Origin: Deltaproteobacteria bacterium
GTDB taxonomy: Bacteria > Desulfobacterota > JAJRXV01
Assembly (NCBI GenBank): GCA_024275075.1
Contig: JAJRZU010000157.1
Span: 1 to 23,566 of the forward strand
Length of the DNA: 23,566 nt
Direction: 5' to 3'
Every line of letters begins with the position of its first letter. Within the stretch, counting starts at the first letter, position 1. Made by a program: the position numbers and the translations under genes. A model generated the notes under the pieces. That model saw nothing but the letters and a program-made list of their open reading frames with translations. It did no database searches and was not told where the DNA came from. Shown here one piece after another: positions 1-23,566 of this stretch.

Positions 1-1059
1 ACCTGGCAACTGCGGTTATCTGACTTCTCTGAAGAGGAGATGGGAATAGGCGAGGTGATAATTCACAACATCAACGATGATGGTTACTTGTCCGTAACTA
101 CTGCTGATCTGGCAGATACATACAGCTATATGGAGGAGAGTGTATTAGATGTCCTTAAAAAGATCCAGAACTTTGACCCGTTAGGCGTCGGCTCAAGGGA
201 TTTGAAGGAGAACCTTTTAAAACAGGCGGAAAGTTACAATCTGGATAACCCGATAGTCATCAGAATTATCAAAGAGCATTTGGGCAACCTTGAGAAGAGG
301 AACTATAAGGCGATAGCAAAGTCTTTATGCGCCCATATAGATGATGTTTACAGTGCGTGCAAGATAATCATATCGATGGAGCCAAGGCCGGGCAGGGTAT
401 TTTCCACAGAGTACGTGCAATATATAACACCGGATATTTACTTGTTTAAAGTAGGTGATAAATACGTCATATCGCTGAACGAGGACGGCCTGCCAAAGCT
501 GAGGGTCAGTCAGTATTACAAAAGAATATTACAAAACGGCAGTAATAATGAGAGTTCTAAGGTAACAAGGGAGTATATTCACAAAAAGCTGCGGTCGGCT
601 GAATGGCTGATAAAGAGTATTCACCAGAGGCAAAGGACTATTTACAAAGTAGCGGAGAGTATCCTTAAGTTCCAGAAGGATTTCTTTGAAAAAGGGGTAG
701 GGCACTTGAAACCGCTTATATTACGTGATGTCGCCAGTGATATTGAGCGGCACGAATCCACTGTAAGCAGGGTTACAAGCAATAAGTACATTTATACGCC
801 GCATGGGTTGTTCAAGTTAAACTACTTTTTCACGAATTCGGTTGATACAATAACCGGTAATGAGCGGGTCGCGACAGAGAACGTTAAGGAGCTTATTAAA
901 GAACTGATCGCTAAGGAGGATAAGAAGAAGCCTCTTAGCGACCAGAAGATATCGAGCGTATTAAAAGATGAAAATATTATCATAGCGAGGAGGACGGTTG
1001 CAAAGTATCGGGAAAACTTAAAAATATTACCATCAAAGATGAGGAAGCGGGCATTTTAA
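1..1059 (+). CDS. rpoN: RNA polymerase sigma-54 factor RpoN, C-terminal part (5' end lies outside the window)
   Basis: The frame is open from base 1 and the ORF table lists 40..1059. The C-terminal 'ARRTVAKYRE' matches the RpoN box. The DNA-binding helix-turn-helix region and the core-binding region look sigma-54-like. Stop is TAA. Confidence 0.85.
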   Translation, partial: TWQLRLSDFSEEEMGIGEVIIHNINDDGYLSVTTADLADTYSYMEESVLDVLKKIQNFDPLGVGSRDLKENLLKQAESYNLDNPIVIRIIKEHLGNLEKRNYKAIAKSLCAHIDDVYSACKIIISMEPRPGRVFSTEYVQYITPDIYLFKVGDKYVISLNEDGLPKLRVSQYYKRILQNGSNNESSKVTREYIHKKLRSAEWLIKSIHQRQRTIYKVAESILKFQKDFFEKGVGHLKPLILRDVASDIERHESTVSRVTSNKYIYTPHGLFKLNYFFTNSVDTITGNERVATENVKELIKELIAKEDKKKPLSDQKISSVLKDENIIIARRTVAKYRENLKILPSKMRKRAF

Positions 1060-1131
1060 GCTTTGATGACAAACGCGGTATAGTTCATTAAGCATGTTTT
1101 ATTATTTATTTATTGTAACGGAGGTTAATAA

Positions 1132-1674
1132 ATGCAAATATTAGTTACTTTCAGACATATGGATGCCACGCAGGCTCTTAAGGCATATGCTGAAGAAAAA
1201 ATAGCACGTGTTAAGAAATATTTATTTGACCCTATAGATGTACATGTGGTCTTAGCTGTTGAGAAAAAGAGGCATATGGCGGAGATAACCATTGTCACTA
1301 ATGGTATCACAATATACGCGGAGGAAGAGACGTTAGATATGTATTCTGCCATAGACGTCACAATTGACAAAATCGAGCGTCAGGTAAAAAAATATAAAGA
1401 GAAGATCAAAGGGAAAAAATCAAATCATAGCAAGAGGCTTAGTGTCAAAATGCAGGTAGTGTCGTCAGAGAGTATTGAATCTGATACAGGGCATAAAGTC
1501 ATCAAGAACAAAAGGTTTTTTGTAAAACCGATGTCTGTAGAGGAAGCGGTCATGCAGATGGACCTTATCCATAATGATTTCTTAGTATTTACTAATGCAA
1601 CATCAGATGAGATCAACGTCATATACAGAAGAAAAGATGGTGATTACGGGCTTATAGAGCCTTACGACGCTTAA
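1132..1674 (+). CDS. hpf: ribosome hibernation promoting factor, long form (sigma-54 modulation protein)
   Basis: The 180 aa protein begins MQILVTFRHMDATQALKAYAEEKIARVKKY, typical of the HPF/RaiA family. It sits at the canonical position directly after rpoN. A strong RBS (ggaggttaataaATG) precedes it. Confidence 0.85.
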   Translation: MQILVTFRHMDATQALKAYAEEKIARVKKYLFDPIDVHVVLAVEKKRHMAEITIVTNGITIYAEEETLDMYSAIDVTIDKIERQVKKYKEKIKGKKSNHSKRLSVKMQVVSSESIESDTGHKVIKNKRFFVKPMSVEEAVMQMDLIHNDFLVFTNATSDEINVIYRRKDGDYGLIEPYDA

Positions 1675-1681
1675 GTGGAAT

Positions 1682-2149
1682 ATGAATATTAGAGATCTAT
1701 TAAACGAAGAAAACATAATTGTAGACTTAAAGGCAACGCTAAAAACGGATGTCTTAAAGGAGCTGGCTACTAAATTAGTCTTGGCGAACCCTGATATTGA
1801 TCTGAATCTCTTGACCGAAAAATTAATCGAGCGGGAGAATCTGAGCAGTACCGGTATTGGGGAGGGTATCGCTATACCGCACTGTAAGTATCAGAACCTC
1901 GGGGGGATACTTATGTCGTTTGGAAGAAGCCTGGCGGGCGTTGATTTCGATTCCATTGACAAAAGGCCGGCAAAGATATTCTTCTTGCTGGTCGCGCCGG
2001 ACACACCAAAGGCGGCCGGTGAGCACTTGCGCACATTAGCGAAAATCACGAGGATATTAAAAAGCAGTGACTTTAGAGATGCCTTGATGTCTGTGGCGAC
2101 CGAGAAGGAAATCTATAAGATGATCGCGATAGAAGATGAGAAATTTTAG
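1682..2149 (+). CDS. ptsN: PTS EIIA-Ntr nitrogen regulatory protein (fructose/mannitol-type EIIA domain)
   Basis: 155 aa with the GIAIPHC active-site His motif of PTS EIIA type 2. It occupies the standard position between hpf and hprK/rapZ. Stop is TAG. Confidence 0.8.
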   Translation: MNIRDLLNEENIIVDLKATLKTDVLKELATKLVLANPDIDLNLLTEKLIERENLSSTGIGEGIAIPHCKYQNLGGILMSFGRSLAGVDFDSIDKRPAKIFFLLVAPDTPKAAGEHLRTLAKITRILKSSDFRDALMSVATEKEIYKMIAIEDEKF

Positions 2150-2173
2150 GCTAAAGTCAGGAAAGCAAGGTTG

Positions 2174-3121
2174 ATGAATTCCATTTCGGTAGAGGAATTA
2201 CTAAAAGAGAAGGGTAAAGATTTTCATTTACAACTCACCGAAGCGGATAAAGGTCTGACCAACAAAATATCCACGCCAAGGATCCAGAAACTTGGCATAG
2301 CCTTAACCGGTTATACCAAATTCCTGCGCCCTAACCGCATACAGATAATCGGGAACACGGAATTATCATACCTTAAGACGCTTGCTCCGCCAGAAAGAAA
2401 GGAGCGGATAAAAAAGGTCTGCGGCAAAGAAGATATCGCCGCGTTTGTCATCACGAAGAATCTGCGGATCCCGAAATTTCTACTCCAGCAGGCGAAGAGC
2501 CAGAAGATACCGGTGCTCAGGACATCTGCGGATACTGCCGCATTCATTACTATCATTACAAGGTATTTAGAAGATGTGCTCTCGCCTTCTACCGTCATAC
2601 ATGGTGTTTTACTTGAGATATTTGGTGTCGGGACGCTTCTGATCGGCAAATCCGGTATCGGTAAAAGTGAGAGCGCGTTAGACCTAGTGCTAAAGGGACA
2701 TCGGCTCGTTGCTGACGATATTGTAAATATAAAGAAGAGGGCGCAGACAGTCCTTCTCGGGGCGGGCGCGGAGCTGATCAAGCATCACATGGAGGTTCGC
2801 GTGCTGGGCATCATCAACATCAAGGACCTGTTCGGCAGCGCTTCTGTCAAGGATATCCAGAAGATAGAGCTTGTCATATATTTATCTGAATGGGATAATA
2901 TGAAAGAATACGACAGGCTTGGTATCGATGAGGAGCAGTATAATATCCTTGATGTTAAGATGCCATTATTGAATATTCCTGTTACGCCAGGCAGGAATAT
3001 GACGACGATCATAGAGGTGGCGTGCAGAAACTTCCTGCTCAAGCAGATGGGTTGCAACTCTGCGCTAAACTTCCATAATGAACTACTGAAGCGGATTCAG
3101 GAAAAAACACTGCATGAATAG
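2174..3121 (+). CDS. hprK: HPr kinase/phosphorylase
   Basis: P-loop GKSGIGKSE. The HprK C-terminal catalytic-domain motifs (LIGKSGIGKSE...ADD, HHMEVRV.GI) are conserved. Length is about 315 aa. The ORF table starts at TTG 2171 and the first ATG is at 2174. Confidence 0.85.
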   Translation: MNSISVEELLKEKGKDFHLQLTEADKGLTNKISTPRIQKLGIALTGYTKFLRPNRIQIIGNTELSYLKTLAPPERKERIKKVCGKEDIAAFVITKNLRIPKFLLQQAKSQKIPVLRTSADTAAFITIITRYLEDVLSPSTVIHGVLLEIFGVGTLLIGKSGIGKSESALDLVLKGHRLVADDIVNIKKRAQTVLLGAGAELIKHHMEVRVLGIINIKDLFGSASVKDIQKIELVIYLSEWDNMKEYDRLGIDEEQYNILDVKMPLLNIPVTPGRNMTTIIEVACRNFLLKQMGCNSALNFHNELLKRIQEKTLHE

Positions 3122-3992
3122 CATTAATATTGTCATAGTAACAGGTCTTTCGGGCTCGGGGAAGTCCACTGTTCTAAAAGTCCTTGAGGATTTAGGGTTC
3201 TTTTGCGTCGATAACCTGCCTGTAGTTTTATTCAATAAATTCCTTGAGTTATGTACGCAGACCACCGGTAACCTGAACAAAGTCGCAATCGGTATGGATA
3301 TCAGAGAGAGGGATTTCTTCAAAGATTACCCCTTGACTTTTAAGGAGTTAAGGGAGGCCGGCTATGATTTTGAGCTGATGTTTTTAGACTGTTCCAGCGA
3401 TGTCATTCTAAGGCGGTTCAGCGAAACGCGCCGCAAACACCCGTTAGAAGGCGGGGGCTCTGTACTTGACAGCATATCAAGGGAAAGACTCAAATTAGCG
3501 GAACTAAAGGATATTGCTACAAAAATAATAGATACGACAAAAATAAACGTTCACGAGCTGAAAAACGAGGTGCGAAAATACTACTCGGATTATTCATCAC
3601 TGCACGCGATGAAGATCACATTGGTATCGTTCGGTTACAAAAATGGCGTACCGACCCCGGCGGATATTGTTATTGATGTGAGGTTCATGACCAATCCATT
3701 CTTTGTCCCTGAGTTAAAGCACCTGACCGGTCTGGATCAAGAGATACGCGATTTCTTGTTTAAAGACAATGATATCGCAAATAGTTTTATCGATAAGTTC
3801 CTCGATTTCCTGAGCTTTTTGATACCGCTGTATGAAAAAGAGGGGAAAAAGTACCTGACGATCGCTATTGGTTGCACAGGTGGCCAGCACCGGTCCGTAG
3901 CTGTTGTGAACAACATATCATCATTGCTGAAAAAAGATTATGAAGAAATAATTGTCACACATAAAGATTTGATTTATAATAAGGAAAAATGA
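3114..3992 (+). CDS. rapZ: RNase adapter protein RapZ (YhbJ/YvcJ family P-loop NTPase)
   Basis: N-terminal Walker A VTGLSGSGKST and the C-terminal domain of the YhbJ family. It overlaps the hprK stop, and ATGA overlaps the next gene. Confidence 0.85.
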   Translation: MNSINIVIVTGLSGSGKSTVLKVLEDLGFFCVDNLPVVLFNKFLELCTQTTGNLNKVAIGMDIRERDFFKDYPLTFKELREAGYDFELMFLDCSSDVILRRFSETRRKHPLEGGGSVLDSISRERLKLAELKDIATKIIDTTKINVHELKNEVRKYYSDYSSLHAMKITLVSFGYKNGVPTPADIVIDVRFMTNPFFVPELKHLTGLDQEIRDFLFKDNDIANSFIDKFLDFLSFLIPLYEKEGKKYLTIAIGCTGGQHRSVAVVNNISSLLKKDYEEIIVTHKDLIYNKEK

Positions 3993-4309
3993 AAGGGAAC
4001 TCGCTTATGGTAGGTATCGTAATCGTAACTCACGGGGAGCTCGCCCACCACCTATTAGAGACGGCAAAAGGCATTGTGGGCGAAGCCAGGCAGGTTGCGA
4101 CGCTCTCTGTCTCTGCTAATAAAGAGATTGCAAAGATAAGGAGTGATCTTTCTGACGCGATTCAAAATGTCGATACGGGTGACGGGGTGTTGATACTGAC
4201 CGATATGTTCGGGGGGACGCCGTCAAACATCAGCCTCTCTTTCTTGAACGAGAAGGAGGTTGAGGTTGTGACAGGGGTCAACCTGCCGATGCTTATAAAG
4301 CTCCTATAG
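3989..4309 (+). CDS. PTS mannose/fructose/sorbose-family EIIA component, interrupted by an in-frame TAG at 4307-4309 (the open part is 106 aa)
   Basis: MVGIVIVTHGELAHH contains the EIIA-Man phosphorylatable His. The ORF stops at TAG 4307-4309. The same frame continues for 41 more codons that resemble the EIIA-Man C-terminus, reaching TGA 4433-4435. See the next feature. Confidence 0.75.
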   Translation: MKGNSLMVGIVIVTHGELAHHLLETAKGIVGEARQVATLSVSANKEIAKIRSDLSDAIQNVDTGDGVLILTDMFGGTPSNISLSFLNEKEVEVVTGVNLPMLIKLL

Positions 4310-4435
4310 ATGCAAGAGAAGAACGAGCTATACTCGCTGGCAAAGAAGATAGAGGTATATGGCAAGAATAACATATACTTAGCAAGTGAAATTCTAAAGA
4401 GCAGGATCGATGTTTCAAAGGGTGGGGAAAATTGA
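4310..4435 (+). other. C-terminal 41 codons of the EIIA-Man gene, in the same frame directly after the internal TAG
   Basis: 4310-4432 encodes MQEKNELYSLAKKIEVYGKNNIYLASEILKSRIDVSKGGEN. It is in frame with 3989 and ends at TGA 4433-4435. That stop overlaps the TTG start of the EIIB gene at 4432, so the ATTGA junction is coupled. The combined length of 147 aa matches a normal EIIA-Man. Confidence 0.6.
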
Positions 4436-4929
4436 GTATTGTCCTTGCAAGAGTTGACAACAGGTTAGTCCATGGGCAGGTGCTTGAGACGTGGGTGCCT
4501 TTCACCAAGGCCAACAGTATTATTGTGCTCAATGACGATGTCTACAATAACCAGTTGCAAAGAGGTATCATACAGTCATGCGTACCGTCATATATTGAAG
4601 TGCTGATCAAAAGAATAGAGGATGTACCGTCGCTTCTTGATTACATATACAGCTCAAATATTAGGTGCATTATACTCTTTTTCAATATTCACGATGCGCT
4701 TGCAGCCTATAAAAGCGGGTTGGCGTTTAATAAACTGAATTTAGGTAATATACATTGCCATACCGGCAGGCGGCAGGTGACCCGTACGATCTACCTGAAC
4801 AATGAGGATATAGAAGGATTAAAGGTGCTTGAGGGGATGAGCATCAAGATAGAGATAAAAACCGTACCACAGGAGAAGGGGGCGGATTTCTTCAAAAAAG
4901 TCGCGAAGATATCCTCATGGGCAAAATGA
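4432..4929 (+). CDS. PTS mannose-family EIIB component
   Basis: LARVDNRLVHGQV is the EIIB-Man/sorbose phospho-His motif. TTG start. Stop is TGA, and it overlaps the EIIC start (ATGGGCAAAATGA). Confidence 0.8.
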   Translation: MSIVLARVDNRLVHGQVLETWVPFTKANSIIVLNDDVYNNQLQRGIIQSCVPSYIEVLIKRIEDVPSLLDYIYSSNIRCIILFFNIHDALAAYKSGLAFNKLNLGNIHCHTGRRQVTRTIYLNNEDIEGLKVLEGMSIKIEIKTVPQEKGADFFKKVAKISSWAK

Positions 4930-5615
4930 TTGATATACTTACTGTAAGTTTATTAGGCGCTCTTTTGTCGCTGGACAGAACGGCGGTGCTGCAATCCATG
5001 ATAGCAAGGCCGATTGTGACAGCCCCACTAATAGGACTCTTGTTAGGGGATGTCTACACCGGGATTGTCATCGGTGCGGCGCTCGAGCTCTTGTGGATAT
5101 CGTTACTGCCGCTTGGCGCATATATACCGCCTGACGAGAATCTGGCGGCGGTTCTGACCACTTCTTGCACGATAATCGGTATGAGGAGCATAAACGTTGA
5201 GCTTCATAACGCGTTCATTGTGTTGAACATATTGTTTTTTATACCTTTCGCCTATTTTGGGAGGACGGTTGACAAATATGTCAGGATCATTAACAACAGG
5301 CTCTCAAATATCGCTGAAAGAGAGTGTGATAATTTTAATTTCACAAAAGTCGAGGCGATGAACATTGCAGGGATGCTGGTATTCTACGCATTGAATTTTA
5401 TTACGATATTTATTCTCTTGTCGATGACTGTAAACATAACGCCGGCTATTTACAATGTGTTGCCGGTATTCTTTACCGATGGACTTGAGATTGCCTATCC
5501 GGTATTCCTGATAGTCGGTGCGGCGGCGGCGCTCTGGGGCAATAAAACGAAAAACTCGTTCATCACTTTTACTGTATCGTTTTTATTGTTTTCGATTATC
5601 CTTGAATTATTATAG
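4917..5615 (+). CDS. PTS mannose-family EIIC membrane component
   Basis: 232 aa multi-pass membrane protein. GDVYTGIVIGAALELLWIS is typical of ManY/AgaW-like EIIC. Stop is TAG. Confidence 0.75.
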   Translation: MGKMIDILTVSLLGALLSLDRTAVLQSMIARPIVTAPLIGLLLGDVYTGIVIGAALELLWISLLPLGAYIPPDENLAAVLTTSCTIIGMRSINVELHNAFIVLNILFFIPFAYFGRTVDKYVRIINNRLSNIAERECDNFNFTKVEAMNIAGMLVFYALNFITIFILLSMTVNITPAIYNVLPVFFTDGLEIAYPVFLIVGAAAALWGNKTKNSFITFTVSFLLFSIILELL

Positions 5616-5625
5616 CAGGTGGAAA

Positions 5626-6423
5626 ATGGTTGTCATTGTAAAAAAGAAGATGAGCTTATTGTTGCTGATGAGGGTACTCGTAAGGAGTCTCTTTATCCAG
5701 TCCGGCTGGAATTTCAAGAAGATGCAGAACCTCGGATTCGCGTTCAGCATCATACCGGCGCTCAAGAGGATATATGGCGATAAGAGCGAGGAGTTGCAGG
5801 CGGCGGTAAAAAGGCACCTTATCTTCTACAATTCTCATCCGTACCTCTCGGCGCCTATATTAGGCGCCACGATCAGCCTTGAGGAGGAGTATAAACTAAC
5901 GGGCGCCGGTATGGAGAACATAAATATCTTCAAGAACAGCATGATGGGTATATGCGGCGGGGTAGGGGACACTTTCTTTTGGGGCGTTGCAAGACCCGTT
6001 GCAGGTTTGTTAGGCGTTATATTGGCGCTCACGGCATATAACATATACGCACCGGTTGCATGTCTCGTATTATATAACATCGTTCATCTGACTTTCAGGG
6101 CGGCTACTTTTTTTTCCAGCTACAAAAACGGGACAGCAGTGACTAAGACAATAATGAAGATCAATCTGAGGACGCAGACGCAAAGACTCAAGAAGCTGGA
6201 GATAGTGTTACTCGGTGCGCTTTTGGCGTTGATAAAAAATAAATTTGTCATTTGCAACTTTGATGTGGTAACTTATAATTTTATCGCGATTTTATTGTTT
6301 ATTTTGATTTTTTTCATTTTATACTTTTTAATTAACAAAAATATTAGTCCGGCGCTGATTGTATATATAGCGGTAACTGCTGTAATATTAATTAGTTATA
6401 TATATAATTCATCGCTCGCTTAA
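5626..6423 (+). CDS. PTS mannose-family EIID membrane component
   Basis: SGWNFKKMQNLGFAFSIIPALKRIY...HLIFYNSHPY...APILGATISLEE aligns along its length with ManZ-type EIID. An RBS (caggtgg) precedes ATG 5626. The ORF table start at 5518 is an upstream in-frame extension that overlaps EIIC. The AT-rich 3' end encodes extra TM helices. Confidence 0.8.
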   Translation: MVVIVKKKMSLLLLMRVLVRSLFIQSGWNFKKMQNLGFAFSIIPALKRIYGDKSEELQAAVKRHLIFYNSHPYLSAPILGATISLEEEYKLTGAGMENINIFKNSMMGICGGVGDTFFWGVARPVAGLLGVILALTAYNIYAPVACLVLYNIVHLTFRAATFFSSYKNGTAVTKTIMKINLRTQTQRLKKLEIVLLGALLALIKNKFVICNFDVVTYNFIAILLFILIFFILYFLINKNISPALIVYIAVTAVILISYIYNSSLA

Positions 6424-6435
6424 CAAGGGAGTTAT

Positions 6436-6708
6436 ATGGAATACGCAGAGATTTTTGAGATTAAGAACAAATTAGGGCTTCATGCGAAGGCAGCGGGGCT
6501 TTTTGTGCAGACGACAAACAAGTTCACCGCCGATTTTTACGTGAAAAAAGATGACATAGAGGTGAACGGTAAGAGCATTATGGGGCTTATGATGTTAGCG
6601 GCCGCGAAAGGGAGCAGGATTTTAGTCAGAGCCAGCGGCAGTGATGCGAAAGAGGGTTTAACTGAGATAAGAGAGCTTATTTTAAGAAAATTCGATGAGG
6701 AAGAATAG
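6436..6708 (+). CDS. ptsH: phosphocarrier protein HPr
   Basis: 90 aa with His15 in GLHAKAA and Ser46 in NGKSIMGLM, the HprK target. Ends with tandem stops TAG TAA. Confidence 0.85.
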   Translation: MEYAEIFEIKNKLGLHAKAAGLFVQTTNKFTADFYVKKDDIEVNGKSIMGLMMLAAAKGSRILVRASGSDAKEGLTEIRELILRKFDEEE

Positions 6709-6713
6709 TAAAT

Positions 6714-8489
6714 ATGAAACATGGAAATAAAATGTATAAGTTGCAGGGTATCGCTGTTTCCCCGGGGATTGTTACCGGTAAGGCGTACCTTTTGGACAGG
6801 AAAAGGGTAAGGCACATTGAAAAGCCGATAAAGGTGGAGAGTGTCGAGCATGAGACCCAAAGGTTCTTAGAGGCGGTTGAGAATTCAAAGAATCAGTTGA
6901 TATCCATTAAAGACAAAATAGCAGGCAGTAAAAGCAAAAAGCCGATCGGGCACGGGCATCTTTATATTATTGATATTCACCTGATGTTCTTAGAAGATAA
7001 GATGCTCATTGACGAAACGATAAATACGATCAGGAAGAAAGAGATAAACGCTGAATGGGCGCTGCGGCTGGTCGTAAAAAACATCCAAAAGGTATTTGAT
7101 AATATCGAAGACGAGTACTTCAAGGAAAGAAGTAGTGATATCATGCACATATCCGAGAGGATTATGAGGAATCTTGTCGGTAAGGAGGAGCAGAGCATTA
7201 TTGAGATCGATGAGGAGATCATAATAATCGCTCACGACCTCTCGCCGGCTGACACTGCACAGATGGCGCTTAACAAGGTAAAGGGGTTCCTCACCGATAT
7301 CGGTAGCAAGACCTCGCATACGGCGATTATGGCGCGCTCTTTGAAAATCCCCGCGATTGTCGGTTTAGAGCGTATAACTGACGTCATAAATGGCGGTGAC
7401 ATAATCATCATCGACGGGATCAGCGGGACGGTGATCATAAATCCGAACGCTGCCACGATAAAAGAGTATGACCAGAAGAAGCTAAACTACGATGAGTATG
7501 AGAAAAAGCTTTTTGTATACAAGAAATTGCCCGCTGTCACGAAGGACGGCAGGAGGATAATCCTAAGCGCAAATATTGAGCTGATTGACGAGATACCGAC
7601 TACCATTGAATATGGCGCCGAGGGGATCGGGTTATATAGAACAGAATTTCTGTATATGAACCGCAAGAATCTCCCTACCGAGGAGGAGCATTTTGAGGTG
7701 TACAAGAACCTCGTTGACGGCATCTCGCCATACCCGATCACAATAAGAACGCTTGACTTAGGCGGTGACAAGTTCATCTCCCAGATACAGCTGGCTGACG
7801 AGATGAACCCGGCAATGGGGCTAAGGGCAATCCGGTTCTGCCTCAAAGAGAAACAGATTTTCAAGACCCAGCTTCGGGCAATACTGCGCGCCAGCCATTA
7901 CGGTGAAATAAAGGTGATGTTCCCGATGATCTCTGGTATCCCTGAGATACGCGAGGCGAAGGGCATATTAGAAGAGGTGAAAACATCCCTTAAGCACGAC
8001 AAGACACCATTTGACGAAAATATTCAGGTCGGTATCATGGTGGAGATTCCCTCGGCCGTGACAATCGCGGATCTACTCGCAAAGGAGGTCGGGTTCTTCA
8101 GCATCGGGACTAACGATCTCATCCAGTACTCTCTGGCTATCGACAGGGTCAACGAACATGTCGCCTACCTGTACGAGCCATTGCATCCGGCTCTGCTCCG
8201 CACGATCAAGCACATCGTGGATACCGCCCATAATGCCGGTATCTCTGTCAGCATGTGCGGCGAGATGGCTGGTGAGCAGGAGTATATTCTCGTTCTACTG
8301 GCGCTCGGGCTCGACCAGCTCAGTATGAACTCGATGTCAATCCCGCGTGTTAAGAAGATCCTGCGCTCATCAAAGTACCATGACGCCAACGAAATTCTAA
8401 ATAACTGCTTCAAGATGTCTACCACCTACGAGATCGAAAAATATGTCCGACAGGAAATGCACACGATGTTCCCCGACGATTTTTCGTAG
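6714..8489 (+). CDS. ptsI: phosphoenolpyruvate-protein phosphotransferase (PTS Enzyme I)
   Basis: 591 aa. The N-terminal region IAVSPGIVTGKAYLL and the phospho-His domain (TSHTAIMARSLKIPAIVG), PEP-binding domain and C-terminal TIM-barrel motifs (GTNDLIQYSLAIDR, SMCGEMAG) are conserved. Confidence 0.9.
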   Translation: MKHGNKMYKLQGIAVSPGIVTGKAYLLDRKRVRHIEKPIKVESVEHETQRFLEAVENSKNQLISIKDKIAGSKSKKPIGHGHLYIIDIHLMFLEDKMLIDETINTIRKKEINAEWALRLVVKNIQKVFDNIEDEYFKERSSDIMHISERIMRNLVGKEEQSIIEIDEEIIIIAHDLSPADTAQMALNKVKGFLTDIGSKTSHTAIMARSLKIPAIVGLERITDVINGGDIIIIDGISGTVIINPNAATIKEYDQKKLNYDEYEKKLFVYKKLPAVTKDGRRIILSANIELIDEIPTTIEYGAEGIGLYRTEFLYMNRKNLPTEEEHFEVYKNLVDGISPYPITIRTLDLGGDKFISQIQLADEMNPAMGLRAIRFCLKEKQIFKTQLRAILRASHYGEIKVMFPMISGIPEIREAKGILEEVKTSLKHDKTPFDENIQVGIMVEIPSAVTIADLLAKEVGFFSIGTNDLIQYSLAIDRVNEHVAYLYEPLHPALLRTIKHIVDTAHNAGISVSMCGEMAGEQEYILVLLALGLDQLSMNSMSIPRVKKILRSSKYHDANEILNNCFKMSTTYEIEKYVRQEMHTMFPDDFS

Positions 8490-9963: not shown

Positions 9964-10242
9964 TCACCCTTTCGCGGTCACTTTCTTCATAAAATCGGTG
10001 AACTCCACTTTGAACCTATCCGCTGAAAACCGCCTGGCATTCTCGATAATATCCTCGCACGCGAACCCGCCCTGCCCTGCTTCGAATCTCTTGACCGCGT
10101 CAACAAGGCTCTCGATCGTCTGGGAGTCAAAGAATATGCCCGTCTTACCGCTTATGACCGTCTCGGTGGCGCCACCCTTCCCGAACGCGATGACGGGTGT
10201 TCCACACGCCTGCGCCTCAACGGGTACGATACCGAAATCCTC
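9964..10242 (-). other. C-terminal 92 codons of the same GT4 gene, in the same frame directly after the internal TAA
   Basis: The - strand translation [41 protein letters not shown]... is the conserved GT4 catalytic C-terminus (EX7E motif). It is in frame with 10243..11076 and ends at TGA 9964-9966, 10 nt before the aminotransferase start. Confidence 0.65.
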
Positions 10243-11076
10243 TTACGCGGCGAATATGAACGCTTTCGCCCGCAGCATATAGTCACTCAAGGCATCGGCG
10301 CTCTGGTATCCCATGAGCTTGACATTCTTGCCCGCCTTCGCTTTCACCTTCTTTATGTCAGGCCCGTCACCAATGACGACGAGCTCCTTGTCTGGCATCG
10401 TCGAAAAAGCTTCCACTATCAAGTCCATCTTCTTATACGGTACCATCCGTGACGCAGCGAGGTAGAAACCAGCTTTCTCCGTATCAAGGACAGTAGCTGA
10501 ATCCATAATATTAACAGGTGGATATATAACGGTCGCGTCTTTGTTGTAGATCTTCTTGATCCTGCCTGCGGTATATTTTGAGTTCGCGATATAGTGATCG
10601 ACCCTGTTTGCGGTAGTAGCGTCCCAAATCCGCACATAATGCAGGATCGCCTTCGCCATCATCGCTTTTATGCCTCTGGTCAACCCCGCCTCCCTGAGAT
10701 ACTGGTGATACAAATCCCACGCGTAGCGCATCGGTGTGTGGCAGTAGCAGACGTGCGTCTGGTTGGAGCTGACAAGCGCGCCCTTCGCGACCGCGTGAGA
10801 TGACGAGATGACCAGATCGTACCCGGACAGGTCGAACTGTTCGATAGCAAACGGCATCAGCGGCAGGTATGACCGGTACTTGCGCTTCGCAAAGGGCATC
10901 TTCTGCAAAAACGAGGTGTTAGTCGCCTTATCAAGGATAAATCCACGCCCACCCTCTGGCAGGAAATCGACAAGGCAGAATATATCCGCCTCGGGATAGA
11001 GAGAAACTATCTGCTCCAATACCCGCTCGGAACCGGCGTATGTCACGAGCCAGTCATGTACAATTGCAGTCTTCAT
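10243..11076 (-). CDS. GT4-family glycosyltransferase, N-terminal 277 aa up to an in-frame TAA at 10243-10245
   Basis: MKTAIVHDWL...GSERV is a typical GT4/GT-B N-terminal domain. The ORF stops inside the conserved EX7E region (..[26 protein letters not shown]..). Confidence 0.75.
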   Translation of the reverse strand: MKTAIVHDWLVTYAGSERVLEQIVSLYPEADIFCLVDFLPEGGRGFILDKATNTSFLQKMPFAKRKYRSYLPLMPFAIEQFDLSGYDLVISSSHAVAKGALVSSNQTHVCYCHTPMRYAWDLYHQYLREAGLTRGIKAMMAKAILHYVRIWDATTANRVDHYIANSKYTAGRIKKIYNKDATVIYPPVNIMDSATVLDTEKAGFYLAASRMVPYKKMDLIVEAFSTMPDKELVVIGDGPDIKKVKAKAGKNVKLMGYQSADALSDYMLRAKAFIFAA

Positions 11077-12847: not shown

Positions 12848-12924
<77 letters not shown>

Positions 12925-13013: not shown

Positions 13014-13017
13014 ACAG

Positions 13018-13092
13018 TTTATTCCATCGCGATGGTTTCTAGTTTATTCCATCGCGATGGTTTCTAGTTTATTCCATCGCGATGGTTTCTAA
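13018..13092. repeat. three tandem 25-bp repeats (TTTATTCCATCGCGATGGTTTCTAG), each containing the perfect 12-bp palindrome CCATCGCGATGG
   Basis: Three head-to-tail copies; the third ends in A instead of G. The array abuts the -35 of the tRNA-Arg promoter candidate and lies 3' of the - strand operon that ends at 13109. Confidence 0.9.
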
Positions 13093-13108: not shown

Positions 13109-13432
13109 CTATTGTGTGTCGCCACTCTCACTCTTTAGCCTAATACCGGTGCTTTGCCCCGCCGAGATTGCATTATCATCAGCCGTATTATGGTATGGGT
13201 TCTCCGATGCAGTTATTCGCGTCAACGCCGCCTCGATATTCGAGATGGATTTGTTCATCCTGATAAGCTGGCGATATGATTCATTCAGGATCGACTTCAT
13301 CTTGAATACAGCTAATGGCAGAACTATCCACATGACTATAAGCAGGAAAAACAAGAAGATAAGGAAAAAGCTAAGGAGGCTGAAAGAGCCCTGCGTAAAT
13401 ATCTTTATAAAGTCTATTTCATTCGCCATCAT
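13109..13432 (-). CDS. small single-pass membrane protein with a C-terminal coiled-coil or disordered tail (hypothetical)
   Basis: 107 aa. It has a hydrophobic segment LLSFFLIFLFFLLIVMWIVLPLAVF. It overlaps the upstream gene by 4 nt (ATGA), which suggests it is co-translated with the TPR/beta-helix protein. Confidence 0.5.
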   Translation of the reverse strand: MMANEIDFIKIFTQGSFSLLSFFLIFLFFLLIVMWIVLPLAVFKMKSILNESYRQLIRMNKSISNIEAALTRITASENPYHNTADDNAISAGQSTGIRLKSESGDTQ

Positions 13433-18504: not shown

Positions 18505-19449
18505 TCAGTCACCTTTTTTCAGATATTTGAGCGCGTCACCAACGGTGAATAAAGAACCTGAGACAAAGATAATCGAGCCGTCCTCGTACAGGTCATACGC
18601 ACGATCCAACGCGCTTTTGACATCAGGTACACTTATCACATTCGCGTCGCTTTCAAAGCCGGTTAGCAGTTTATTCGGGTCCGCCGCGCGGTTTATCGCC
18701 GGTTTGGTCAGGATGACGGTATCAGACACGCCGCACACGCGCTTTAGTATGCCCGCGGTATCCTTGTCACTCATCACACCGATAACGCTTATGATCCTCT
18801 TACCCGCGAAGTTAGCCTTGAGCGTATCGATCGCGGTGCGCATCGACGCGTCATTATGCGCGCCATCTAATATAAGAAGCGGATCGTCAGAAAAGAGATC
18901 GAACCGCCCCGCCCACTTCACGTCGCCAAGCCCGCTTCGTATGCTCCACTCCCCCACCAAAAAGCCGCTACCCTCAATCAGTTCGGTCGCGGCTATCGCC
19001 AGTGAGAAGTTGTCAAACTGGTGCCCACCCATGAGGCTCTTCTTGATACCGCTGTACGATCTGTTGATACCGGTATAATCAAACGTATCCGCACCGATCT
19101 TCGTATACGTAAAATCGCGGTGGAGCTGGTACACCTTCGCGTCCATAGCATCCGCGGCAGCCTCGATGACTTCCCGCGCCCGCTCATCATTTACGCCTGA
19201 GATAACCTCCGCGCCCCTTTTTATGATACCCGCTTTCTCCTTCGCGATCTTTGCTATTGTGTCGCCAAGGTAGCGCTGGTGCTCCATCGATATGCTCGTC
19301 AAAACGCTCACTGTAGGCGTTACAACGTTTGTCGCGTCGAGCCGCCCCCCCATACCGGTCTCTATCACCGCGATATCCACTCCCTTTAACATGAAGTAAT
19401 AAAACGCTATTGCAGTAGTATACTCAAAAAAAGTTATCTCGCAATCCAA
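18505..19449 (-). CDS. folC: bifunctional folylpolyglutamate synthase / dihydrofolate synthase, C-terminal 314 aa (after an in-frame TAG at 19510-19512)
   Basis: ETGMGGRLDATNVV, AKEKAGIIK and ILDGAHNDAS are Mur-ligase/FolC motifs. It is in the same frame as the N-terminal fragment. Confidence 0.85.
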   Translation of the reverse strand: MDCEITFFEYTTAIAFYYFMLKGVDIAVIETGMGGRLDATNVVTPTVSVLTSISMEHQRYLGDTIAKIAKEKAGIIKRGAEVISGVNDERAREVIEAAADAMDAKVYQLHRDFTYTKIGADTFDYTGINRSYSGIKKSLMGGHQFDNFSLAIAATELIEGSGFLVGEWSIRSGLGDVKWAGRFDLFSDDPLLILDGAHNDASMRTAIDTLKANFAGKRIISVIGVMSDKDTAGILKRVCGVSDTVILTKPAINRAADPNKLLTGFESDANVISVPDVKSALDRAYDLYEDGSIIFVSGSLFTVGDALKYLKKGD

Positions 19450-19512
19450 ATTAAGCGCGGCTTTCTTCTCCCGAATGATTCGGGTAATGTCGATAACGCT
19501 CGCATCGTCGAT

Positions 19513-19779
19513 CTAGCCGCCGCCCGCGCGTATCCTCTCATTAAAATCGATAAGGTGGGGAGAAGTGTACAGACCGACTCTATAGCCGCTCTTTGTCAGC
19601 ATGGACTCTATCGCGGCGGCGGTAGACCCTTTCCCGTTAGTACCGGCGATGTGGATAGTCTTGTATTTTTCCTGCGGGGAAGAGAGGGCGGCGAGCAGCT
19701 TACGAATATTTGTGAGCCCGAGCTTGATACCGAATTTCTGCAGGTTGAAAAGATAATCGATCGTCTCTTTGTAATCCAT
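19513..19779 (-). CDS. folC: folC N-terminal fragment (ATP-binding P-loop region), ending at an in-frame TAG
   Basis: MDYKETIDYLFNLQKFGIKLGL...HIAGTNGKGSTAA...YTSPHLIDFNERIRAGGG* matches the FolC N-terminus, including the GTNGKGST P-loop. The ORF table starts at TTG 19815; ATG 19779 aligns better with FolC N-termini. Confidence 0.8.
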   Translation of the reverse strand: MDYKETIDYLFNLQKFGIKLGLTNIRKLLAALSSPQEKYKTIHIAGTNGKGSTAAAIESMLTKSGYRVGLYTSPHLIDFNERIRAGGG

Positions 19780-19820
19780 CAAATCATTTCTTTGCCGGTC
19801 GATGCTGATAAACAAAACAG

Positions 19821-19877
19821 GCGCTTAGTGAAATACAGGGCGCTTAGTGAAATACAGGGCGCTTAGTGAAATACAGG
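19821..19877. repeat. three tandem 19-bp repeats (GCGCTTAGTGAAATACAGG) between the cytochrome c gene and folC
   Basis: Three perfect head-to-tail copies lie 40-100 nt upstream of the folC start on the - strand. They are followed by the 8-bp inverted repeat CAGGGCGC...GCGCCCTG. Confidence 0.9.
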
Positions 19878-19906
19878 GTATACTATTCATTACAATGCGC
19901 CCTGCC

Positions 19907-20167
19907 CTATTCCCCTGGCTCAGGTTGCGGGGCATGGCAGCCATAGCACCTTGTCCTTTTTACATGAGTATCGGGTATCGGGTACTCGCCGCCCTTGAAA
20001 TGGCACTTCCCGCATTCTTTGTGCATATCCCTTTTGGTAGTCGCTTTCACGGCATTCAGGTGCGTCTCGTCTGCGGGATAGTAAGAGCCCTTCTTCTCAG
20101 GCGCCATAAGGAGTACCGTTAGTACCGCCGCCATCACCAAAACGAAGGCCACATGCTTCTTTAACAT
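19907..20167 (-). CDS. small dihaem c-type cytochrome (signal peptide plus two CXXCH motifs)
   Basis: 86 aa. Signal peptide is MLKKHVAFVLVMAAVLTVLLMA. Haem-binding motifs are CGKCH and CYGCH. Confidence 0.6.
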   Translation of the reverse strand: MLKKHVAFVLVMAAVLTVLLMAPEKKGSYYPADETHLNAVKATTKRDMHKECGKCHFKGGEYPIPDTHVKRTRCYGCHAPQPEPGE

Positions 20168-21267: not shown

Positions 21268-23402
21268 CGCTTTTCTTTTTGTTTCTTTGTATCGCATCTG
21301 TTTCAAAGGCAGACCTCCTTATCACAAACAGCGGCAGAGAACTTAAAGGCGAAGTAAAAAGCATTGACAGCGAATCTGTAACTATCATCGTCAACAATGA
21401 AGAGAAGGTCTTAAAAAAAGGCGATATATTAAGGATAGACTTTACGAAGGATATCTCCGCAGACAGCGCCGTACCCTTGTCTGCTCTGAATGATACGCTC
21501 CTTAGCGACGCCGTCTCGAAGAAGGTAGCCCCCGCGGATTACCCGAACGCCGGTTATATAAAACTCTACAGCGAGCGGCAGTTTACCTATACAAAAGAAG
21601 GCGCTTTCATAGCGACATACCGTGAGATCAGGCAGATATTGCAAGAGCGCGGCAAGAATACCGGTATAGTAACCTTTGCGTATAAGAAGGGGGTTCAGAC
21701 CGCTAAAGTCGATTATGGCAGAACGGTGAACGATGAGCTTGTCTTTAAACCAGAAAACGCTAAAAACAGCATCTATAAAAGGATGGTCACCGACTATGAC
21801 CAGTCCTCTTACCGGGAATCCTCATACTTTTACCGGTACCCTGACTATGACAAGATGATGAGGATCAAATTCCCACTGCCAAACATAGTCGTCGGGTCCG
21901 TCATCGATTATCAGTTTACCGTTGAGCAGCGCATCATCGACACATTCGAACCGGTATTCAAAGAGGTCTACTTTTCGAGCAATGAACCGGTACTAAAGCA
22001 ACGCCTGATAATCAGGCGCCCGAAAGATTCCGGCGATCTGAAGATATCGTCGCGCCTCATGGGGCAGGCGGGAAGCGACTTCACCTATACTGAGAAGGAA
22101 GATGGCGAATATACTGTAATCACTTATGAAAAAGAGAACATCAAACCAGTGGAAGATGAATCGTATATGCCGTCAGACGAGATGATAATGCCAAGGGTGA
22201 TAGTATCGCTAAGCCCGAATCTCAAGGATATCGCCAAAGCGTACAGCAGGCGGCTTGAGAGGCTCCTTTTCATCAACGATGAGATAAGGGGCAAACTCTA
22301 TGAAATATTGATCGGCGCTGACGGCAGGGAAGACAAGGTATTCAGGATATACGATTATATATCAAAGGAGATAAGCGAGATACCGATCAGCCCTGAATAT
22401 TTCAGTTACCTGCCGAAAAAGAGCGATTACATATTCAGCAAAAAATCCGGTAGCAGTATCGATAAGGTGTTTATGTTATACGCTTTTTTACAGGCGGCGG
22501 ATATTGCGTGCGATTTCGCGCTGGTGCGGGACAGGAACGCCGGCGGTATATTCATGGAGAATCAGTCTATCAGGCAGTTCGGGTATCCGGTAATCATCGT
22601 ACCGCTTGATATCACTACCTTGTATATCACCGCGTTAGACAGGAACCTGACGATAAGGGATATCGACAGCTATTTGCAGGGCGGTGAATATATTATCGTA
22701 TCTGGTGATACAAGCGGCGAAGTCCGCAAGCTCCCGCTGAGGTCACCAGAGCGGGAGAGTATCTCTGACAGTTATGAGATAGAGCTTTTTGAGGACGGCG
22801 GCATTATGGTGCTCGAAAAGAGGACGGCTGCCGGTAACAAGCAGGGCTCCCTGAGACGCTACCAGTATATGCCGAAAAAGAACCTCAGGCAGGCTATGGT
22901 CAAGCGTACGCACCGGATTCACCCTAATGCTGAGTTAAAGGACTATAAATTCAAAAATTTAAGCGACCTGTCAAAAGCGCCGGAGATGGAGATAAAGTAC
23001 AGTATCGATGATTATATGATCTCCGCAGGCGACAGGTTATTCGCCTTCCAGTTGCCATCGCTCTCTTACTCCGCCTACGGGGTCGCGAAGAGTACGCGGA
23101 AGTTCCCCGTCAGCTTCGGACTGCCGATTATGACCAAAAAGAGTTATACGATAAAACTACCAAAGAACTATAAGATATACTATATGCCCGATAAATTCTC
23201 ATATAAATCCGATAACTTCACCTATGAAGCCGCATACGAAGCGAATGGAGATACTATCGTCTTTAAGGATTCATATAAAAGAGCGGATACCTTTATGCCG
23301 AAGGAAGCCTACTACGAGCTGAAAAAGTGTCTTGAGACCAGGGCGGACGTAGCCAAGGGATGGATAGTCATCGAAAGGGAGCCAAACGCTCCACCGAATT
23401 AA
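21246..23402 (+). CDS. DUF3857 / transglutaminase-like (probably catalytically inactive) / DUF3858-type secreted protein
   Basis: A signal peptide (V/M)SLLKVFSLFFLFLCIASVSKA follows GTG 21246. The central region YIFSKKSGSSIDKVFMLYAFLQAADIACDFALVRD resembles the transglutaminase core, with Ser where the catalytic Cys is expected. The ORF table gives a longer version from GTG 21123, and ATG 21138 is also possible. The 5' 120 nt carry two hairpins and an A10 tract. Confidence 0.55.
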   Translation: MSLLKVFSLFFLFLCIASVSKADLLITNSGRELKGEVKSIDSESVTIIVNNEEKVLKKGDILRIDFTKDISADSAVPLSALNDTLLSDAVSKKVAPADYPNAGYIKLYSERQFTYTKEGAFIATYREIRQILQERGKNTGIVTFAYKKGVQTAKVDYGRTVNDELVFKPENAKNSIYKRMVTDYDQSSYRESSYFYRYPDYDKMMRIKFPLPNIVVGSVIDYQFTVEQRIIDTFEPVFKEVYFSSNEPVLKQRLIIRRPKDSGDLKISSRLMGQAGSDFTYTEKEDGEYTVITYEKENIKPVEDESYMPSDEMIMPRVIVSLSPNLKDIAKAYSRRLERLLFINDEIRGKLYEILIGADGREDKVFRIYDYISKEISEIPISPEYFSYLPKKSDYIFSKKSGSSIDKVFMLYAFLQAADIACDFALVRDRNAGGIFMENQSIRQFGYPVIIVPLDITTLYITALDRNLTIRDIDSYLQGGEYIIVSGDTSGEVRKLPLRSPERESISDSYEIELFEDGGIMVLEKRTAAGNKQGSLRRYQYMPKKNLRQAMVKRTHRIHPNAELKDYKFKNLSDLSKAPEMEIKYSIDDYMISAGDRLFAFQLPSLSYSAYGVAKSTRKFPVSFGLPIMTKKSYTIKLPKNYKIYYMPDKFSYKSDNFTYEAAYEANGDTIVFKDSYKRADTFMPKEAYYELKKCLETRADVAKGWIVIEREPNAPPN

Positions 23403-23566
23403 GGGAGCCAAACGCTCCACCGAATTAAGGGAGCCAAACGCTCCACCGAAATAAGGGAGCCAAACGCTCCACCGAAATAAGGGAGCCAAACGCTCCACCG
23501 AAATAAGGGAGCCAAACGCTCCACCGAAATAAGGGAGCCAAACGCTCCACCGAAATAAGGGAGCCA
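23377..23566. repeat. tandem array of a 26-bp unit GGGAGCCAAACGCTCCACCGAA(T/A)TAA, at least 7.3 copies, continuing beyond the window end
   Basis: The first unit is the last 8 codons plus the stop of the DUF3857 gene. Units 1-2 read GAATTAA and units 3-7 read GAAATAA. Each unit can form the hairpin GGAGC-CAAAC-GCTCC. There are no spacers, so it is not CRISPR-like. Confidence 0.9.

Follow-up and report, generated by a model that had tools for sequence, protein, structure and literature searches.

Pseudogenes with internal stop codons have been catalogued in recently degraded or clonal genomes, including those of Salmonella Typhi, Yersinia pestis, and Shigella. In marine Deltaproteobacteria, Pyl-decoding amber suppressor tRNAs have been documented, with Pyl sites at conserved active-site positions of methylamine methyltransferases (PMC8318568), and code 15 phages read TAG as Gln (PMC9523058; bioRxiv 10.1101/2021.08.26.457843). 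In sequence data, Illumina reads can be miscalled after GGC motifs, on one strand only and with the wrong base copying those before it (Nakamura et al., 2011; PMC3141275). Here, we analyze a folC gene with an in-frame TAG in a 23,566-nt window, which is the whole of a public contig. We conclude that this TAG is very probably an ordinary substitution, arising either as a recent mutation or as a consensus error and involving no recoding, and that it belongs to an excess of point nonsense codons seen across the contig, with no device specific to folC.

The folC gene (dihydrofolate synthase / folylpolyglutamate synthase) occupies 18505..19779 on the minus strand and has 424 codons if read through. 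It starts at an ATG at 19779 (MDYKETIDYL...), and its true stop is a TGA at 18507-18505. The N-terminal part, with its GTNGKGS P-loop and TSPH omega loop, ends ...ERIRAGGG directly 5' of the TAG at 19512-19510; in the minus-strand frame, ...YTSPHLIDFNERIRAGGG is followed by this TAG and then, in the same frame, by IDDASVIDITRIIREKKAALNLDCEITFFEY... as far as the TGA. The protein sequence after the TAG begins IDDASVIDITRIIREKK..., with a further 335 codons in unchanged frame. If translation ends at the TAG, the product is an N-terminal fragment of 88 aa (19513..19779, minus strand), and this fragment appears as a separate gene call, P0123, in a public protein collection.

Multiple comparisons support assignment of the interrupted gene to the FolC family. 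First, the read-through protein matched TIGR01499 with 383.3 bits over model positions 1-400 of 400, against a curated cut-off of 162.65, and contained Pfam Mur_ligase_M (residues 44-264) and Mur_ligase_C (residues 291-409) domains. Second, it aligned over residues 1-423 with Thermotoga maritima FolC (PDB 1O5Z; E 3e-76), and PDB structures of FolC/FPGS enzymes matched it with E values from 3e-76 to 3e-48. Third, the catalytic motifs GTNGKGS, SPH, and DGAHN were all present, and columns G46-S52, S73-H75, and D305/A307-N309 were invariant across the window protein and 11 homologues. Finally, tblastn with the FolC proteins of relatives gave a single alignment segment that spans the stop. The gene therefore matches its family (TIGR01499, in the Mur-ligase superfamily) from end to end, and what it lacks is the uninterrupted coding sequence of ~420 aa. 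The closest FolC proteins (P0002-P0007) are 57-64% identical, are 424-436 aa long, and have no interruption; among the matches listed, leaving aside the window's own fragment, the other homologues are likewise all full-length (411-618 aa). The initial annotation had read this gene as folC with an in-frame TAG at 19510-19512 and had stated that the frame continues unchanged past it, and both readings are borne out by the TIGR01499, Mur_ligase_M/C, and 1O5Z matches, by the read-through to the TGA at 18507-18505, and by the single tblastn segment. It had also placed the stop between the P-loop domain and the rest of the Mur-ligase fold. That placement was mistaken, because a single Mur_ligase_M match runs across residue 89, and the stop is thus not at a domain boundary.

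The TAG is codon 89 of folC (19510..19512, minus strand) and falls at a variable loop column within Mur_ligase_M. The local sequence is GGC GGC GGC TAG ATC GAC, and the stop cuts the ATP-binding domain 14 residues past the SPH omega-loop motif. In the 11 homologues, the stop column contains Q/E/E/N/N/D/E/D/L/E/P and is variable; T. maritima has Y there and L. casei has P. By contrast with this column, neither the adjacent I90 nor the SPH motif varies in the same alignment. At the DNA level, the aligned codon in the folC genes of three relatives is GAG (L001), AAT (L002), or AAC (L003), and L001, whose FolC is 63% identical to that of the window, has TAT GAG ATC GAC opposite GGC TAG ATC GAC. 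Because L001 has GAG at this codon, a single G-to-T change is the simplest origin of the TAG; judged from these aligned codons, GAG to TAG (a G-to-T transversion) would be the most parsimonious direction, with a C-to-T change from CAG also possible. The AGGG stretch just before the TAG (codons 85-88, GCG GGC GGC GGC) differs from the V/I-N/S-G/K-x pattern of all relatives, suggesting that local divergence of this loop preceded or accompanied the nonsense change.

Past the stop, folC shows no decay. Mean identity of this part of the window protein to five outgroups was 0.422, within the 0.412-0.436 found for its six nearest relatives, and a private change was present at just 1 of 108 otherwise invariant sites, with 0-10 such changes in intact homologues. 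We looked for signs of relaxed selection on folC, namely extra lesions, an accelerated branch, or lost invariant residues, and found none. The lesion, if real, would be recent as judged from this conservation. The earlier statement that the gene carries no other decay therefore holds, but the conclusion drawn from it, that an intact downstream part argues against simple pseudogenisation, does not follow: the picture would be identical if the mutation were very recent or the base miscalled, and intact downstream sequence fits a recent lesion, a base error, or a tolerated stop equally well. As expected for a nonsense pseudogene, the in-frame stop lies in a region collinear with full-length homologues and is absent from orthologues. 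No positive evidence supports reading the folC TAG as more than a simple nonsense lesion.

Two other genes in the window carry lesions of the same type. A GT4 glycosyltransferase gene (9964..11076, minus strand; 370 codons if read through) contains an in-frame TAA at 10243-10245 in the context ...AKAFIFAA*EDFGIVPVEAQACGTPVIA..., one codon before the EX7E motif (EDFGIVPVE). The stopped ORF reaches only position 99 of the 172-position Glycos_transf_1 model, the read-through protein covers positions 13-171, and 98-100% of its length aligns with homologues of 365-382 aa. The stop column is Glu in 13/13 homologues (FAAEEDFGI), and the lesion would be a single G-to-T change of GAA to TAA if these aligned residues reflect the original codon. 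The second gene encodes a PTS EIIA component of the Man family (3989..4435, plus strand) and has an in-frame TAG at 4307-4309. Its read-through ends at a TGA at 4433-4435, which overlaps the EIIB start at 4432 in a TTGA of the kind typical of translational coupling. Against the 116-position EIIA-man model, the stopped ORF matches positions 1-99 and the read-through protein positions 1-115; PDB EIIA-Man chains align with the read-through protein as far as residue 131. Most homologues have 130-150 aa, and the residues encoded past the stop align with their conserved C-terminal helix (an LA..YG..I..LASE segment). The stop column itself is variable.

These observations place three nonsense-interrupted genes (TAG, TAA, TAG) among ~27 on the 23.6-kb contig, with each stop being the sole defect of its gene. 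Domain scans detected no frameshifts among the scanned window genes, and all scanned genes other than these three gave full-length domain matches, including the 3' part of rpoN, hpf, ptsN, hprK, rapZ, EIIB/C/D, HPr, ptsI, a class V aminotransferase gene, lpxC, maf, and band-7. Several of these genes form a compact cluster at 40-8489 (plus strand; rpoN(3' part)-hpf-ptsN-hprK-rapZ-EIIA/B/C/D(Man)-HPr-ptsI), in which a full mannose-family PTS is found together with the regulatory PTS genes linked to rpoN. The density of UAG/UAA-interrupted but otherwise pristine genes on this contig is unusual. Free-living genomes contain roughly 1-5% pseudogenes, and 3 in ~27 exceeds the norm both for a free-living genome and for an Illumina consensus. 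This high frequency counts against ordinary substitution as the explanation, which we nevertheless regard as very probable for the reasons given below.

If the folC TAG is an ordinary substitution, then a GAG-to-TAG change would have occurred in an otherwise intact and conserved folC gene, with no programmed recoding site. Ribosomes would end at codon 89 and release the 88-aa fragment, which would be without most of the ATP-binding domain and without the whole C-terminal domain, and full-length FolC would then be made only through basal near-cognate read-through. Because each of the three nonsense codons is the sole defect of its gene, we infer a shared cause that acted either on the DNA itself or on the way its sequence was determined. 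This cause might be a set of mutations that arose very recently and became fixed in the population sampled, as in a GC-to-TA-biased mutator or a relaxed clonal lineage, or it might be consensus base errors in the assembly. The position of the GT4 stop at an invariant Glu speaks for random mutation, which strikes such a column as readily as any other, whereas tolerated recoding would not favor it.

Between these two causes, we lean slightly toward real, recent mutations over consensus error, and a real, recent mutation is the somewhat probable status of the folC TAG itself. Two considerations count against it. Selection should act strongly against a consensus-level nonsense codon in folC if this is an essential gene present in one copy, and the window shows no independent sign of genome erosion, with a GC content like that of its relatives. 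Relative to L001 and L002, the window does lack Metallophos_2 and Lactamase_B_3 genes beside folC, but we dropped erosion as an explanation of this difference, because L003 is equally short and has the gene order of the window, and the two 'missing' genes are thus not a window-specific loss. Directly upstream of folC in the window is a 92-nt spacer that contains a perfect 19-nt tandem repeat at 19820-19878 (GGCGCTTAGTGAAATACAG, 3.1 copies); L001 and L002 have the Metallophos_2 gene at this position, and L003 has a spacer of 226 nt. Farther upstream, at 19907-20167 (minus strand), is a gene for a conserved 86-aa protein. Its N-terminus is signal-like, its two CxxCH motifs are CGKCH and CYGCH, and from its sequence it looks like a small dihaem cytochrome c; the gene is syntenic with folC in L001, L002, and L003. 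Promoter, terminator, and Rfam scans around folC gave nothing relevant.

Consensus or base-calling error is a less probable but still serious cause of the folC TAG. At 19510-19512 the organism itself would then carry a sense codon (probably GAG or CAG), the T would stem from sequencing or assembly, and the GT4 and EIIA stops would be artefactual too. One lesion per gene in otherwise perfectly conserved sequence is what such errors would leave, and all three lesions are substitutions with no indels, as short-read errors would give. The organism also appears to have been seen once, possibly at low coverage: five window proteins were found in a 15-billion-protein collection, which includes Logan assemblies of public runs, and each was a singleton cluster. 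An exact-pattern scan of JGI metagenome contigs did not find the folC site. A scan of 185,579 species-representative genomes gave relatives only, at no more than 59% identity. The 23.6-kb length of the contig, however, implies usable coverage. As a general estimate, ~4-5% of random coding substitutions create stops; to yield three of them, 23 kb would have to contain tens of errors, far beyond Illumina consensus rates. The sequence context is similarly two-sided. The folC site is immediately 3' of (GGC)3, and GGC is a known trigger of sequence-specific Illumina error (PMC3141275), but miscalls of this kind copy the preceding one or two bases in one read direction, and the bases here are G and C rather than T. 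We therefore rejected a GGC-triggered miscall as the source of the folC T, as the described miscall type does not yield T at this position. The EIIA site, moreover, has no GGC context. The contig ends in a 26-nt tandem repeat (AAGGGAGCCAAACGCTCCACCGAAAT; 23375-23566; 7.4 copies at 99% identity) that includes a GGAGC/GCTCC inverted repeat. The tandem repeat begins inside the 3' end of a 759-aa DUF3857 gene, reaches the contig end, and probably explains why the assembly stopped there.

Natural suppression is an unlikely explanation but has several points in its favor. According to this model, an amber- or ochre-reading tRNA (anticodon CUA or UUA; Pyl or other) would keep folC, GT4, and EIIA functional via partial read-through. 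Each of the three internal stops is a UAR codon and none is UGA, the interrupted genes all have UGA as their final stop, and downstream sequence shows no decay; this pattern of UAR inside and UGA at the end was noticed post hoc, and its chance is ~0.05 for all three genes ending in TGA and ~0.3 for no internal TGA. In addition, two of the three stops (folC and EIIA) are at variable columns where any residue would do, and the nearest genome is labelled Deltaproteobacteria, in marine members of which Pyl-decoding amber suppressor tRNAs are documented (PMC8318568). Other evidence weighs against suppression. UAG or UAA ends most window genes (about 10 TAA, 9 TAG, and 7 TGA across the ORF calls, so that ~19 of 26 end in TAA or TAG), often with UAR-only back-up stops, and efficient suppression would be costly. 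The GT4 TAA replaces an invariant Glu beside the catalytic EX7E motif, and a Pyl tRNA would not read UAA. Neither the gene calls of L001 and L002 nor a rough, noisy, homology-free scan of L001-L003 for same-frame ORF pairs gave evidence of interrupted genes.

Searches of the window for the components or signals of recoding were also negative. An Rfam scan of the window detected tRNA only, and the sole tRNA is a tRNA-Arg(TCG) rather than a suppressor; Pfam scans of the window detected no pyl genes. Between this tRNA gene (12848-12924) and an ORF at 13109-13432 is a perfect 25-nt tandem repeat (13016-13091; 3.0 copies) holding the 12-nt palindrome CCATCGCGATGG. The three interrupted sites have no common context or structure, and the 106 nt from each stop folded no better than shuffled sequences (z = -0.51 for folC and -0.11 and -0.43 for the others). 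A CCCGAA/TTCGGG hairpin 30 nt past the folC TAG was considered and set aside, as it is not significant and L001 has CC GGG CTT TTA AGG at those codons. In alignments of FolC, GT4, and EIIA homologues, all had sense residues at the three stop columns. The interrupted site thus has neither of the features of programmed read-through, a cis signal like SECIS or PYLIS and a conserved stop, and it does not resemble Pyl recoding, which uses a conserved UAG shared by orthologues of a known Pyl-protein family; the host protein here is FolC.

A functional split enzyme, in which the 88-aa P-loop piece would join a C-terminal piece translated from its own start to give active FolC, is very unlikely. Both pieces are conserved and intact, and the gene caller gave two products, of 88 aa and 295 aa. 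Nevertheless, the cut is within one domain, with Mur_ligase_M (44-264) running across it, and the 20 codons past the TAG contain no ATG, GTG, or TTG restart codon; the first in-frame start is a TTG 20 codons downstream, without a convincing ribosome-binding site. A separately initiated C-terminal fragment would consequently lose conserved residues, and the 295-aa call, which begins ~40 codons downstream, does lose them, including the invariant I90. No comparable split product is present among the homologues listed, all of which are 411-618 aa. Genome-wide reassignment of TAG (and TAA) to sense, as in code 15 phages, would account for the stops inside conserved genes (TAG twice and TAA once), but we exclude it as hardly conceivable, because the genes are bacterial housekeeping genes rather than phage genes and because the band-7 (TAA), DUF6485 (TAA), and 86-aa dihaem-like cytochrome (TAG) genes end exactly at the C-termini of their homologues in L001 and L002, which shows TAG and TAA to be genuine terminators here.

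For practical use of this genome, the folC, glycosyltransferase, and PTS EIIA genes should carry an 'internal stop' flag, and metabolic reconstructions should treat them with caution. Whether the folC TAG is a mutation or a sequence error, a gene with an internal stop and a sequencing error are each an already known kind of feature. Natural suppression would have a different meaning if true, as judged by a genome-wide excess of such genes together with a suppressor tRNA: it would represent natural partial UAG/UAA suppression in a cellular bacterium and would mean that UAR decoding in a free-living bacterium is ambiguous and at an intermediate stage. To our knowledge, systematic code screens have not reported such a state of partial suppression for UAG or UAA in bacteria.

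Like the genes of code 15 phages (PMC9523058; bioRxiv 10.1101/2021.08.26.457843), otherwise conserved genes in the window contain in-frame TAG codons; unlike in those phages, the locus is cellular and housekeeping, TAG and TAA still act as terminators, three sites only are affected, and the window has no suppressor tRNA. The likeness to Pyl decoding in marine Deltaproteobacteria (PMC8318568) consists of an in-frame UAG and of a nearest genome with the label of a group whose Pyl-decoding members carry an amber suppressor tRNA. Pyl sites, however, are conserved active-site positions of methylamine methyltransferases, whereas the window UAG is at a variable FolC column at which orthologues have ordinary residues; moreover, UAA accounts for one of the three window stops, genes on the contig commonly end in TAG, and pyl genes are absent from the window. 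The folC TAG, directly 3' of GGC GGC GGC, resembles the sites of GGC-dependent Illumina errors (PMC3141275) but differs in that T is not a preceding base, in that EIIA lacks the motif, and in that strand-specific miscalls rarely reach a consensus. Single-lesion pseudogenes of recently degraded or clonal genomes differ from the window genes in three respects, as the window has nonsense codons only and no frameshifts, a gene normally deemed essential is hit, and there is no independent sign of erosion. They share with the window genes a single premature stop, intact orthologues, no other decay, and the occurrence of several such genes in one stretch of DNA.
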